From the NCBI RefSeq assembly GCF_003018255.1, contig NZ_CP027440.1: a stretch of DNA of 64,000 nt; one strand, written 5' to 3'. Made by a program: the position numbers and the translations under genes. Origin of the DNA: Escherichia coli (GTDB lineage Bacteria > Pseudomonadota > Gammaproteobacteria > Enterobacterales > Enterobacteriaceae). Position 1 is the stretch's first letter. Each line of letters starts with the position of its first letter. Below the pieces are notes generated by a model. The model saw only the letters and a program-made list of their open reading frames with translations, made no database searches and was not told where the DNA came from. Shown here piece after piece: positions 4,645 through 64,000 of the stretch.

Positions 4645-5526
4645 ATGAAAGGTATTATCCTGGCGGGCGGTTCCGGCACCCGATTGCATCCGATTACGCG
4701 CGGCGTATCGAAGCAACTGTTGCCGATTTACGATAAGCCAATGATTTACTATCCGCTGTCGGTGCTGATGCTGGCCGGTATCCGCGAAATTCTCATCATC
4801 ACTACGCCGGAAGATAAAGGTTATTTCCAGCGCCTGCTGGGCGATGGTAGTGAGTTCGGTATCCAGCTGGAATATGCCGAGCAGCCCAGTCCGGACGGTC
4901 TGGCGCAGGCCTTTATCATCGGTGAAACCTTCCTCAACGGTGAACCTTCTTGTCTGGTGCTGGGCGATAACATCTTCTTCGGACAGGGCTTCAGTCCGAA
5001 GCTGCGTCATGTTGCGGCGCGCACGCAAGGCGCGACGGTATTTGGCTATCAGGTGATGGATCCGGAACGCTTTGGCGTCGTGGAGTTTGACGACAATTTC
5101 CGCGCTATCTCGCTGGAAGAAAAGCCAAAACAGCCGAAGTCAAACTGGGCGGTGACCGGGCTTTATTTCTACGACAGTAAAGTCGTGGAGTACGCAAAGC
5201 AGGTGAAGCCGTCGGAGCGTGGTGAACTGGAGATTACCTCCATCAACCAGATGTACCTCGAGGCGGGCAACCTGACCGTTGAACTGCTCGGGCGCGGATT
5301 TGCCTGGCTGGACACTGGCACTCACGACAGCCTGATTGAAGCCAGCACCTTTGTACAGACGGTGGAAAAACGCCAGGGCTTTAAGATTGCCTGCCTGGAA
5401 GAGATCGCCTGGCGTAACGGCTGGCTTGATGACGAAGGCGTGAAGCGCGCCGCCAGCTCGCTGGCGAAAACTGGCTACGGCCAATATCTGCTGGAGTTAC
5501 TTCGTGCCCGTCCGCGCCAGTATTGA
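4645..5526 (+). CDS. rffH: glucose-1-phosphate thymidylyltransferase
   Basis: 293 aa; [18 protein letters not shown] nucleotidyltransferase signature (RmlA family). Confidence 0.9.
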
Positions 5527-13411: not shown

Positions 13412-13488
<77 letters not shown>

Positions 13489-13545
13489 TTTAGTCCCGGC
13501 GCTTGAGCTGCGGTGGTAGTAATACCGCGTAACAAGATTTGTAGT

Positions 13546-13622
13546 GGTGGCTATAGCTCAGTTGGTAGAGCCCTGGATTGTGATTCCAGTTGTCGTGGGT
13601 TCGAATCCCATTAGCCACCCCA
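13546..13622 (+). tRNA. hisR: tRNA-His (anticodon GUG)
   Basis: GGUGGCUAUAGCUCAGUUGGUAGAGC with the extra 5' G typical of tRNA-His; anticodon loop AUUGUGAUU; GGUUCGAAUCC T-arm; CCA end. Confidence 0.9.
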
Positions 13623-13642
13623 TTATTAGAAGTTGTGACAAT

Positions 13643-13729
13643 GCGAAGGTGGCGGAATTGGTAGACGCGCTAGCTTCAGGTGTTAGTGTCCTTACGGACG
13701 TGGGGGTTCAAGTCCCCCCCCTCGCACCA
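13643..13729 (+). tRNA. leuT: tRNA-Leu (anticodon CAG), long variable arm
   Basis: GCGAAGGUGGCGGAAUUGGUAGACGC D-arm; anticodon loop CUUCAGGUG; long variable arm; GGUUCAAGUCC T-arm; CCA end. Confidence 0.9.
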
Positions 13730-13771
13730 CGACTTTAAAGAATTGAACTAAAAATTCAAAAAGCAGTATTT

Positions 13772-13848
13772 CGGCGAGTAGCGCAGCTTGGTAGCGCAAC
13801 TGGTTTGGGACCAGTGGGTCGGAGGTTCGAATCCTCTCTCGCCGACCA
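13772..13848 (+). tRNA. proM: tRNA-Pro (anticodon UGG)
   Basis: CGGCGAGUAGCGCAGCUUGGUAGCGC; anticodon loop UUUGGGA; GGUUCGAAUCC T-arm; CCA end. Confidence 0.9.
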
Positions 13849-15387: not shown

Positions 15388-17043
15388 TTAGTCAGATTTA
15401 ATCTGCGCGCGTGGTGGATATTTTTTCAGGATCTCCATATACGCGTGCATTTCGGTCTGTAGCGGTACACCCATCGGAATATGGCGCACGCCGATAGAGT
15501 CGCTTTCCTGCGGATCGGTGTACAGGTTAAACACCGACGATCCCGCCGTTTGCATTACTGTGCCGGTGAATCCACCCTGATATCCGCTCTGGGTATAAGC
15601 GTAAGGTTGCTGAATCAGGACGTGATACTTGAACTCATCCATACGCACAGCAGAAAGTTTACCGTTGAGGAAGTAGTGCTCGGCCTTACGGTTAGACTGA
15701 CCATTTGTTCCCAGGAAGAAAGATGTCTGGTCCACACCATCGATAAAGGTGGTTTTCGGTACTAAATTCGCTACTTTCGCCCCAGGATGCCCCGCCAGAT
15801 CCAGCGCCGTAGGGAAGAGATCCGCCAGATCGACAATGCCGTCAGATTTACGCGGTTGGATCATGCCTTTCCAGTAAACGAAGGTTGGCACACGAACGCC
15901 GCCTTCCCATGTAGAACCTTTCGCACCGCGGAACGGCGTGCGACCGTGCGGCGGAACTTCGGCTTCCGGACCGTTATCAGAGGTGAACACAATCAGCGTG
16001 TTATCAAGCTGACCGTTTTTCTCCAGTGCTTTATACAGATTGGCGAAGATATCGTTCATCTCCACCATGCAGTCGCCGTAAGAGGTGCGCGCCGGAGAGC
16101 TACCCGCATATTTGGCGTTCGGGTAGTTATCGAAGTGACAGCCGCGAGTGCCGTAATAGAGGAAGAAAGGCTTATCACTCTTCGCCATCTTGTCGAGGAA
16201 CTTAACGCCATATTCCATCCAGCGTTGATCCAGGTCTTCCATATATTTCGGCGTAATGTCGGCAATGGCTTCCTGTTCACCGCCGCGCACGGCATGAACG
16301 TCATCTTTGCTAAACGGCAGTTTTTGGATGTATTCAGAACGAGCCGGGCTCAGGGCGACTTCCGGGTTGACATGAACATCACGCCATTCGGTATACATAT
16401 CGGACACCGAGTTAAAGCCGCGGAAATCATCAAAGCCAACGTTCTGCGGCTGCGACTCTTTGTTTTCCCCCATATGCCATTTCCCGATGGCCTGGGTGAC
16501 GTAGCCCTGATCATGCAGCAACTGCGGCAGCGTGGTTAACCCTTGCAGACCGCCCGGTTGCCCGTACATTGGCGGCATCAGAATGCCGTGGTGGATGGAG
16601 TATTGTCCGGTAAGAATCGTGGCGCGGGTTGGGGAAGAACTCGGTTGAGAATACGCCGAAGTTAAAATCAGCCCCTGGCTGGCAACGGCGTCGATATCTG
16701 GTGTAGGGTTACCCACCGCCACGCCGCCGCCGTTAAAGCCAACATCCATCCAGCCCACATCATCCAGCAAGAAAACAACCACGTTCGGTTTCTTACCGGT
16801 TTTTTTCTCAAGTTCTGCCAGCTTCTGCTGGGTTTCTTTGTCTTGTGCAGGATGCTGCATCACCGGCATCATGTTGTCGGCAATAGTGGTCGCCGGTTTA
16901 ACCAGATACTGGTTTGGGTGATCGTATCCGGCAAAGCCTTTGCGTGCGGTGGCGGTTGACGGGGTATCTGCTGCGCTGGCTATGAGAGGAAGAGCTGCGG
17001 CGACAGCAACAACAAGAAGTTTGGGTGAAAACGAAAATTCCAT
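15388..17043 (-). CDS. aslA: arylsulfatase
   Basis: 551 aa; signal peptide; sulfatase signature with the formylglycine target motif [15 protein letters not shown] (C/S-x-P-x-R) and downstream GKWH motif. Confidence 0.9.
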
Positions 17044-17455
17044 GCAAAATGCTCCGGTTTCATGTCGTCAAAATGATGACGTAATTAAGCATTGATAATT
17101 GAGATCCCTCTCCCTGACAGGATGATTGCATAAATAATAGTGATAAAAATAAATTATTTATTTATCCAGAAAATGAATTGAAAAATCAGGAGAGCATTTT
17201 CAATCCTACCTCTGGCGCAGGTGATATGTAAGGCGGTGATGTTATATCGCTTTGATTATTGATGCTGTTTTTAGTTTTAACGGCAATTAATATATATGTT
17301 ATTAATTGAATGACTTTTATTATTCATTATATATATGTGTAGAATTGTGCGCAGGAGAAATATTCACTCAGGAAGTTATTACTCAGGAAGCAAAGAGGAT
17401 TACAGAATTATCTCATAACAAGTGTTAAGGGATGTTATTTCCCGGTTCTCTGTGG

Positions 17456-17461
17456 CATAAT
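17456..17461 (+). promoter_or_regulatory. -10 element (extended TG-n-CATAAT) of glmZ promoter
   Basis: TGGCATAAT located 7 nt upstream of the proposed sRNA 5' end. Confidence 0.45.
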
Positions 17462-17467
17462 AAACGA

Positions 17468-17675
17468 GTAGATGCTCATTCCATCTCTTATGTTCGCCTT
17501 AGTGCCTCATAAACTCCGGAATGACGCAGAGCCGTTTACGGTGCTTATCGTCCACTGACAGATGTCGCTTATGCCTCATCAGACACCATGGACACAACGT
17601 TGAGTGAAGCACCCACTTGTTGTCATACAGACCTGTTTTAACGCCTGCTCCGTAATAAGAGCAGGCGTTTTTTTA
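17468..17675 (+). ncRNA. glmZ: GlmZ small RNA (glmS activator)
   Basis: Sequence beginning GTAGATGCTCATTCCATCTCTTATGTTCGCC and ending in terminator hairpin GCCTGCTC-CGTAATAA-GAGCAGGC plus T7, matching the remembered GlmZ sequence and its aslA-hemY intergenic location. Confidence 0.65.
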
Positions 17676-17721
17676 TGTATCAGAAAGGTCCCGGAGGAGC
17701 TTGCCTCCGGGTGAGAAAGAG

Positions 17722-18918
17722 CTACTGTGGCGGGTTGTTCTGCAACGTTAACATCAAACCGTCGCGACGCATCGCTGCGGCTTCTTCCGGCTTGTGCAGT
17801 CTGTCCAGCGCGTCGGCAAGCCATGCGTAATCGTAGGCGTCCGGACGTTGTTTCAGCGCTGCGCGGAAGGCGAGCGATGCTTCCTGCCATTCTCCGTGTT
17901 TCATCAGCGACTGACCCAGTGTGCTCCACAACAGCGGGCGATCGCCCACGTTTTTGATCTGTTGGCGCAGCACTTTTTCCAGCTGTTCCGGGTTATTGGT
18001 TTTCAGACGCGGGATCGGCAGCAGCAGGCGATCGTCATACTGGCGTTTCAGGCCATCGATGATAATTTGCTGGGCAGTATCATGATCGTCACACTCAATA
18101 AGATGTTCCGCCATTGCCACCTGCAAGGCCACCTGATGACGCGTTTTCCGGCTTTGGTTTTTCCACCAGTTACGCAAACCTTCACTACCGTTATCGGCAC
18201 GCGCCTGATCCATCAGGCCAATCCATGCCTGTTGTTCCAGCATTGCACGATGTTCTTCATCACCAACATGGGCTTTCGCCATTGATGGGATGATATCCAG
18301 CAGCGAACTCCATGCACCAGTGCGGATATACGCCTGTTCCGCCAGACGTAATACTTCCGGATGGCGTGGCGTAACTTCCAGCAGCTTATCCACGCCGTGA
18401 CGTGCTGCATGGTTTTCATTACGGGCCAGTTGCAGACGTACACGGGTGATTTCTACCGGAATGGTGTCATTGCCGGCCAGCTCCGCTGCGCGTTCCAGAT
18501 GTTGGTTGGCGCGTGCTTCATCACCACGTTGTTGCGCGGCTTCGGCTGCCAGTAGATAGTTCACCACCGGTTGTTCAGCGTGATCGGCATTTTTCGCCAT
18601 CAGCTTTTCAACTTGCTGATAATCGCCTTCCGCCAGTTTCAGCAGCGCCTGTTCGGTCTGCTTACGTGCACGGCGACGCTTACGTCCGACAAACCACCCA
18701 CGGGTGTGCGCGCCTGTGCGGAAGATTCGCCGCAGTAGCCACTCAATGGCAAACAGCACTACCATCGCCAGAATCAAAATAATCGCGAGGCCCGTGACGC
18801 TAGTTTCAATATTGTAGTTGTCGGTCTGGATCAGCACGTAACCCTGATGGCCGGCAATCATCGGGCCAACCACGATCCCCGCAATCAGCAACACAAAGAG
18901 CAATAACACTTTTAGCAT
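17722..18918 (-). CDS. hemY: protoheme IX biogenesis protein HemY (TPR membrane protein)
   Basis: 398 aa; two N-terminal TM helices followed by TPR-like repeats; hemCDXY operon synteny. Confidence 0.85.
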   Translation of the reverse strand: MLKVLLLFVLLIAGIVVGPMIAGHQGYVLIQTDNYNIETSVTGLAIILILAMVVLFAIEWLLRRIFRTGAHTRGWFVGRKRRRARKQTEQALLKLAEGDYQQVEKLMAKNADHAEQPVVNYLLAAEAAQQRGDEARANQHLERAAELAGNDTIPVEITRVRLQLARNENHAARHGVDKLLEVTPRHPEVLRLAEQAYIRTGAWSSLLDIIPSMAKAHVGDEEHRAMLEQQAWIGLMDQARADNGSEGLRNWWKNQSRKTRHQVALQVAMAEHLIECDDHDTAQQIIIDGLKRQYDDRLLLPIPRLKTNNPEQLEKVLRQQIKNVGDRPLLWSTLGQSLMKHGEWQEASLAFRAALKQRPDAYDYAWLADALDRLHKPEEAAAMRRDGLMLTLQNNPPQ

Positions 18919-62099: not shown

Positions 62100-62855
62100 A
62101 TGGTGGATAAGTCACAAGAAACGACGCACTTTGGTTTTCAGACCGTCGCGAAGGAACAAAAAGCGGATATGGTCGCTCACGTTTTCCATTCCGTGGCATC
62201 AAAATACGATGTCATGAATGATTTGATGTCATTCGGTATTCATCGTTTGTGGAAGCGATTCACGATTGATTGCAGCGGCGTACGCCGTGGGCAGACCGTG
62301 CTGGATCTGGCTGGTGGCACCGGCGACCTGACAGCGAAATTCTCTCGCCTGGTCGGAGAAACTGGCAAAGTGGTCCTTGCTGATATCAATGAATCCATGC
62401 TCAAAATGGGCCGCGAGAAGCTGCGTAATATCGGTGTGATTGGCAACGTTGAGTATGTTCAGGCGAACGCTGAGGCGCTGCCGTTCCCGGATAACACCTT
62501 TGATTGCATCACCATTTCGTTTGGTCTGCGTAACGTCACCGACAAAGATAAAGCACTGCGTTCAATGTATCGCGTGCTGAAACCCGGCGGCCGCCTGCTG
62601 GTGCTTGAGTTCTCGAAGCCAATTATCGAGCCGCTGAGCAAAGCCTATGATGCATACTCCTTCCATGTGCTGCCGCGTATTGGCTCACTGGTCGCGAACG
62701 ACGCCGACAGCTACCGTTATCTGGCAGAATCCATCCGTATGCATCCCGATCAGGATACCCTGAAAACCATGATGCAGGATGCCGGATTCGAAAGTGTCGA
62801 CTACTACAATCTGACGGCAGGGGTTGTGGCGCTGCATCGTGGTTATAAGTTCTGA
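62100..62855 (+). CDS. ubiE: ubiquinone/menaquinone C-methyltransferase
   Basis: 251 aa; SAM-binding motif [11 protein letters not shown]. Confidence 0.9.
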
Positions 62856-62868
62856 CAGGAGACCGGAA

Positions 62869-64000
<1,132 letters not shown>

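Follow-up and report, generated by a model that had tools for sequence, protein, structure and literature searches.

Genomic context and identity of glmZ

The window, a stretch of 64,000 nucleotides from the Escherichia coli chromosome, carries on its plus strand at 17468-17674 a small RNA (sRNA) gene that we identify as glmZ. The gene is flanked by aslA (15388-17043) and hemY (17722-18918), both on the minus strand, and it occupies the same position in K-12 MG1655. An earlier sequence-only reading of this DNA had placed a GlmZ-like sRNA in the aslA-hemY intergenic region, a placement borne out by both the flanking genes and the K-12 annotation. NCBIfam models confirm the neighbours as HemY (830 bits), HemX, a sulfatase (AslA) and the anaerobic sulfatase maturase AslB. 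On its downstream side glmZ adjoins the hemCDXY cluster and is convergent with it, hemX and hemD following hemY; synteny of glmZ with hemCDXY has been described previously (PMC3045617).

With respect to identity, a whole-window Rfam scan returned a match to GlmZ_SraJ (RF00083) at 17468-17674 on the plus strand, with a score of 218.4 bits against a gathering score of 60 and an E value of 3.4e-56. The match extends over model positions 1-214 of 214, is not truncated, and outscores one overlapping match from the same clan (the lower-scoring one was left out). Pairwise alignment further revealed that the transcript is 100% identical to K-12 MG1655 glmZ across 17468-17675, and the 5′ end of the K-12 ncRNA feature is the equivalent of 17468. 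In K-12 this gene is b4456, and it was formerly named sraJ/ryiA (SraJ/RyiA). The sequence-only reading had named a covariance-model search for GlmZ_SraJ and an alignment to K-12 glmZ as the means of checking its proposal, and the full-length match and complete identity uphold it on both counts. It had also held that a missing Rfam hit, or a lack of conservation in the predicted stem-loops, would speak against GlmZ; the hit is present, and the stem-loops covary in the 120 homologues described below. Gene identity and the anatomy of the locus are thus results of the present analysis itself. Overall, we consider it practically certain that 17468-17674 is E. coli glmZ, having a sigma-70 promoter and its own terminator and specifying a three-stem-loop, glmS-activating sRNA under RapZ/GlmY control.

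The boundaries of the gene are equally well defined. At the 5′ end, GTAGATGCTCATTCC occupies 17468-17482 and begins with G17468, exactly as previously read. In that reading the unit had been given as about 208 nt (17468-17675); its plus-strand orientation and its start at 17468 stand, and the end is corrected to 17674, for a length of 207 nt. Specifically, base 17675 is an A after the U-run, and both the Rfam match and the published length stop at 17674 (PMC4152352). The primary transcript of GlmZ has been reported as 207 nt and its processed form as approximately 151 nt (PMC4152352).

The window is E. coli chromosome. A 341-bp query around the locus gave a match in 5424 of 5426 complete E. 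coli genomes, and for the 207-nt transcript itself identity is 99% or higher in all of these 5424. The two remaining genomes are without any glmZ match. A few records carry a second copy, the matches falling at 5427 places in the 5424 records, and one of these places is on a record labelled as a plasmid.

Annotation of glmZ across public records is uneven. The K-12 RefSeq feature is drawn with 172 nt, to the equivalent of 17639, just short of the terminator stem, and so leaves out the terminator that belongs to the functional RNA, for which the literature and Rfam both give 207 nt. Among the matches listed, none of the 24 PGAP-annotated E. coli records had a feature under the glmZ match.

Promoter architecture

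The glmZ promoter can be read directly from the sequence as an extended −10 element, TGgCATAAT, at 17453-17461 on the plus strand, identical in K-12 and in agreement with the extended −10 promoter claimed earlier. The TG occupies −15/−14 and the CATAAT hexamer −12 to −7, which leaves six bases before G17468. Upstream of this element, we infer a weak candidate −35 in ATGTTA (17432-17437, plus strand), which has three of six matches to TTGACA and is separated from the −10 by an 18-bp spacer. The weakness of the −35 kept the glmZ promoter out of a generic sigma-70 scan, whose two sites in the region (17099-17126 and 17114-17141) were disregarded, as 2.1 would be expected by chance.

These features correspond closely to published work on E. 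coli glmZ, which is driven by a single constitutive sigma-70 promoter that lies within −40 to +32 (a segment sufficient for expression) and is not bound by GlrR (PMC3045617). Its −35 has three consensus matches, and mutating it strongly lowers expression, while a −10 mutation abolishes glmZ expression in K-12 (PMC3045617).

In terms of promoter class, the sigma-54 motif TGGCA-N7-TGC[AT] is absent from positions −32 to −1 in the window. We compared this region with the 45 nt upstream of glmZ in the 118 homologues (among loci L004-L123) that had enough upstream sequence, and the motif was found in 101 of them, with its end 12-13 nt ahead of +1. Of these 101, about half have in addition an overlapping sigma-70-like −10 with an upstream TG. 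The 17 homologues that lack the motif include Escherichia loci (L006 from E. albertii, L057 and L071 from E. coli), some from Citrobacter, some from Pluralibacter, Superficieibacter and several others. The TGGCA within TGgCATAAT was considered as a relic of a sigma-54 −24 box and rejected, as it aligns with the −12/−10 region (TGTGCAATAAT) of the sigma-54-type promoters; where a −24 box would be expected, the window reads CCCGGT, and the box is absent. The distribution of promoter types among the homologues matches the three promoter groups defined in PMC3045617 and extends their sampling. Judged by its sequence, the promoter in the window belongs to the E. coli type (group III), that is, a sigma-70 extended −10 promoter without a sigma-54 −24/−12 element. 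Compared with glmZ of Salmonella, Yersinia and most other Enterobacterales, the window therefore presents the same RNA family, the same hemCDXY synteny and the same pairing motif, UGUUGUC ... GACCUG, whereas those genes have sigma-54 promoters with GlrR sites (PMC3045617) and the window, like other Escherichia, has the sigma-70 extended −10 only.

A further observation in the aslA-glmZ intergenic sequence is a 10-nt direct repeat, ACTCAGGAAG, at 17366-17375 and 17381-17390 on the plus strand, with the two copies 15 nt apart at roughly −102 to −78 relative to glmZ. In a published deletion analysis the sequence upstream of −40 was dispensable for glmZ expression (PMC3045617), and any function of the repeat would therefore concern aslA; the repeat may also be due to chance.

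RNA structure and covariation

The GlmZ transcript folds with a free energy of −60.8 kcal/mol (z −3.4), a stability reached by 0 of 200 shuffled sequences. Three stem-loops and one unpaired region make up its anatomy. Stem-loop 1 (SL1) spans nt 6-61 (17473-17528, plus strand) in both the minimum free energy fold and the RNAalifold consensus. The central stem-loop 2 (SL2) spans nt 73-146 (17540-17613) and comprises helices 6-8. It is followed by a 26-nt single-stranded region at nt 147-172 (17614-17639), which holds the glmS pairing site, the Hfq contact and the RNase E cleavage sites. Stem-loop 3 is the Rho-independent terminator (17640-17674), found by the terminator scan and corresponding to helix 10, with an 11-bp stem over 17640-17669 and a U-tail at 17670-17674.

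To place this fold in an evolutionary setting, we used 120 distinct homologues obtained in one scan of a genome collection with a pattern drawn from two conserved blocks. The homologues come from Enterobacteriaceae, Yersiniaceae, Morganellaceae, Pectobacteriaceae, Hafniaceae and Budviciaceae; each was trimmed at the T-run after its most stable hairpin, and all were aligned with MAFFT, which is blind to structure. The search pattern fixed nt 1-12 and 129-140, and the corresponding alignment columns are uninformative. Projection of the Rfam consensus, itself independent of the alignment, gave 88% of cells paired, versus 34-42% when the partners were slid by 1-3 columns. Compensatory changes on both sides were present in 18 pairs, a number reached in 0 of 500 shuffles; most of these pairs belong to helices 6-8 of SL2 or to terminator helix 10. 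From the same alignment, RNAalifold independently returned the same three stem-loops with 42 pairs, 19 of them with compensatory changes.

The individual stem-loops differ in how much they contribute. Helices 6-8 of SL2 are 92-100% paired and have compensatory changes in 10 of their 16 pairs, the same helices being obtained from RNAalifold, and in terminator helix 10 such changes affect 8 of 11 pairs. In SL1, compensatory changes occur at alignment columns 13/69 (UA in 98 sequences, CG in 23) and 14/68 (CG in 118, UA in 3), whereas most pairs do not vary and so offer little evidence either way. At the SL1 apex, where helix 3 was only 26% paired, the projected Rfam register was rejected and that of RNAalifold was used instead. 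These results establish that the three stem-loops of glmZ are conserved with compensatory changes in the 120 homologues. The central SL2 has been described as the main RapZ-binding element and as the element that decides RNase E cleavage (PMC4737144, PMC9841335).

The same pattern bears on whether the functional unit could be a protein gene on the minus strand, with the plus-strand RNA features incidental to it. An antisense open reading frame does exist at 17579-17929; it encodes 116 aa from a GTG start and matches SPATA3 weakly in Pfam (E 0.013, 16.7 bits), but that score falls under the 27-bit cut-off and the family is eukaryotic. The 5′ 208 nt of the frame overlap the end of hemY out of frame (18918 − 17929 = 989, which is 2 modulo 3), and the remainder crosses the hairpin assigned to the hemY terminator as well as the glmZ terminator in antisense. 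It is annotated neither in K-12 nor by PGAP, and conservation over this stretch follows paired RNA stems rather than codons. We therefore regard a protein gene here as highly improbable; the sequence-only reading had called the frame spurious, which was reasonable given its frame relative to hemY, its below-threshold Pfam match and its absence from the K-12 and PGAP annotations.

The glmZ terminator and a probable convergent hemCDXY terminator

The 3′ end of glmZ is marked by a terminator at 17640-17669 whose stem comprises 11 pairs, 7 of which are G-C, around an 8-nt loop, and which is followed by TTTTT at 17670-17674, so that the strong intrinsic terminator noted from sequence is confirmed. 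The region holds two terminator-like sites, compared with 0.5 ± 0.7 expected from shuffles.

On the minus strand, an 8-bp G+C-rich hairpin (CCCGGAGG/CCUCCGGG, with a 6-nt loop) lies at 17690-17711, 11 nt past the hemY stop codon. Transcription of hemCDXY probably ends at this hairpin, which is 20 nt from the glmZ terminator and convergent with it.

The presence of these two elements raises the question of whether the hairpins are nothing but convergent terminators or 3′-UTR structure of hemCDXY, with no independent sRNA gene between aslA and hemY. In addition to the strong minus-strand hairpin after the hemY stop, the glmZ terminator stem does fold in reverse (−37.9 kcal/mol, z −5.6); on that strand, however, it is followed by UUAAAACAGG and not by a U-tract. 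Such an account covers just 17640-17711 and leaves unexplained the 170 nt upstream, which have a conserved, covarying structure, a defined 5′ end and a promoter of their own. It is refuted by the full-length Rfam match and by the covariation in stem-loops 1 and 2, and we give it next to no probability compared with a genuine glmZ gene.

Predicted base pairing with the glmS leader

We evaluated pairing of GlmZ against the K-12 glmU-glmS intergenic region; the K-12 glmS leader was used because the strain's own glmS lies outside the window. When RNAduplex was given the whole GlmZ sequence and the 196-nt glmU-glmS region, the two paired from end to end around very large loops, an outcome without meaning; pairing was instead tested locally, between the 26-nt single-stranded region and glmS positions −60 to +21, with dinucleotide shuffles. 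In this test, nt 163-169 of GlmZ (GACCUGU, 17630-17636) pair with glmS −40 to −34 (7 pairs), and nt 150-157 (UUGUUGUC, 17617-17624) pair with glmS −29 to −22 (8 pairs). The complementarity to the glmS leader is thereby evident in the window's own RNA. The duplex has a ΔG of −19.2 kcal/mol, which was reached in 39 of 2000 dinucleotide shuffles (z −2.5), a modest result when taken alone.

When the K-12 glmS leader is folded by itself, positions −35 to −28 pair with −15 to −6 and cover the ribosome-binding site. Cofolding of the leader with the 3′ part of GlmZ is predicted in silico to release this Shine-Dalgarno-sequestering arm. The modelled pairing and arm release reproduce the published anti-antisense mechanism (PMC4152352). 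The proposal that this sRNA activates glmS translation fits the predicted freeing of the K-12 ribosome-binding site, activation itself being documented in PMC4152352.

The pairing site also bears on whether 17468-17674 might instead encode GlmY (SroF/Tke1; RF00128), the paralogous decoy sRNA that sequesters RapZ without pairing to glmS. The two RNAs belong to one Rfam clan (CL00011) and have common sequence and fold, and it is from this clan that the single overlapping match arose; the GlmZ model nonetheless wins the clan competition with its 218.4 bits, and the sequence is identical to K-12 b4456 glmZ. The published neighbourhood of glmY is glmY-qseE-qseG-qseF with purL upstream. In contrast, the locus here lies beside hemCDXY, the synteny known for glmZ (PMC3045617). 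GlmY resembles GlmZ in its homologous three-stem-loop fold, and both are bound by RapZ, but GlmY is 184 nt long and its single-stranded region is 12 nt without glmS complementarity, whereas the region here is 26 nt and complementary to glmS (PMC4737144). With aslA and hemY as neighbours and this 26-nt region, the locus has the features of GlmZ and does not fit GlmY_tke1 (RF00128). Identity with b4456 together with the glmS pairing site refutes an assignment to GlmY, the probability of which we consider vanishingly small.

Regulatory model

Since the sequence is identical to K-12, promoter type, Hfq dependence, cleavage by RapZ/RNase E and the GlmY decoy can be carried over from published K-12 experiments, with the expectation that they would hold for the RNA in the window. 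According to the model that results, glmZ would be transcribed from a single constitutive extended −10 sigma-70 promoter and would stop at its own terminator, giving a 207-nt RNA with three stem-loops. With the help of Hfq, the 26-nt single-stranded stretch would pair with the glmS leader approximately 22 to 40 nt upstream of the start codon. This pairing would open the hairpin that hides the glmS ribosome-binding site, and more GlmS (glucosamine-6-phosphate synthase) would be made. The product of GlmS is the first cell-envelope building block.

With glucosamine-6-phosphate in ample supply, the adaptor RapZ would bind stem-loops 1 and 2 and present GlmZ to RNase E. The nuclease would then cut within the pairing site, at nt 153/154 and 155/156, leaving an inactive fragment of about 151-155 nt. 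When glucosamine-6-phosphate is scarce, the look-alike sRNA GlmY would accumulate and sequester RapZ, such that full-length GlmZ survives.

Each of these steps has a counterpart in the literature. Hfq-aided glmS activation and RapZ-dependent RNase E cleavage have been shown for K-12 GlmZ (PMC4737144, PMC9841335, PMC4152352), and from the identity with K-12 GlmZ both are likely to operate in this strain as well. The cleavage positions 153/154 and 155/156, the 26-nt length of the single-stranded region and Hfq binding are taken from PMC4737144; in window coordinates these RNase E sites fall within the pairing site, at 17620/17621 and 17622/17623. Pairing is promoted by Hfq, which contacts the single-stranded region and the oligo(U) tail of GlmZ, and RNase E is recruited by RapZ, which binds mainly SL2 (PMC4737144). 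Sequestration of RapZ by GlmY at low GlcN6P has likewise been reported (PMC7073468, PMC4152352).

Comparison with K-12 and strain-specific SNPs

GlmZ is among the best-characterised enterobacterial sRNAs: its complex with RapZ and RNase E has been solved by cryo-EM, and both its target and its feedback circuit are defined. The glmZ gene at 17468-17674 is an already known, well-studied gene and is nothing new, and finding it changes nothing that is known about GlmZ; it was correctly recognised from the raw sequence in the initial reading. Relative to K-12 GlmZ (b4456), the window agrees in the transcript, its 5′ end, the promoter −10, the terminator, the aslA-hemY position, the three stem-loops and the glmS pairing site. 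There are zero differences inside the transcript, and the only ones observed are flanking SNPs outside it.

One of these SNPs falls in the promoter spacer at 17445 (position −23), which is G here and A in K-12. The 341-bp query, which includes the promoter, has matches of at least 99% identity in approximately one-third of complete E. coli genomes. It seems very unlikely that this spacer SNP measurably alters the constitutive GlmZ level in lineages having it, and with that level the GlmS feedback set-point. Five more SNPs relative to K-12 lie downstream of the glmZ terminator, at 17684, 17689, 17698, 17718 and 17721. As a side observation, none of the five within 17684-17721 affects the stem of the minus-strand hairpin at 17690-17711, and the one at 17698 is in its loop.

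Other features of the window

Rfam tRNA hits mark a four-tRNA cluster at 13412-13845 on the plus strand (13412-13485, 13547-13619, 13643-13726 and 13772-13845), which corresponds to K-12 argX-hisR-leuT-proM, upstream of aslB. Near the far end of the window, at 63223-63474 on the plus strand, there is a full-length match to Rfam RF02757, 'Erse small RNA', with 316.6 bits against a gathering score of 138 and an E value of 1e-95. The match is wholly contained in the ubiJ (yigP) coding sequence, in its 3′ part, and runs up to the ubiJ stop codon; the high score may simply reflect coding-sequence conservation. RF02757 at this position is a reported sRNA embedded in a protein-coding gene, the open reading frame at 62824-63474 being NCBIfam UbiJ (333 bits), with ubiE just upstream at 62100-62855.
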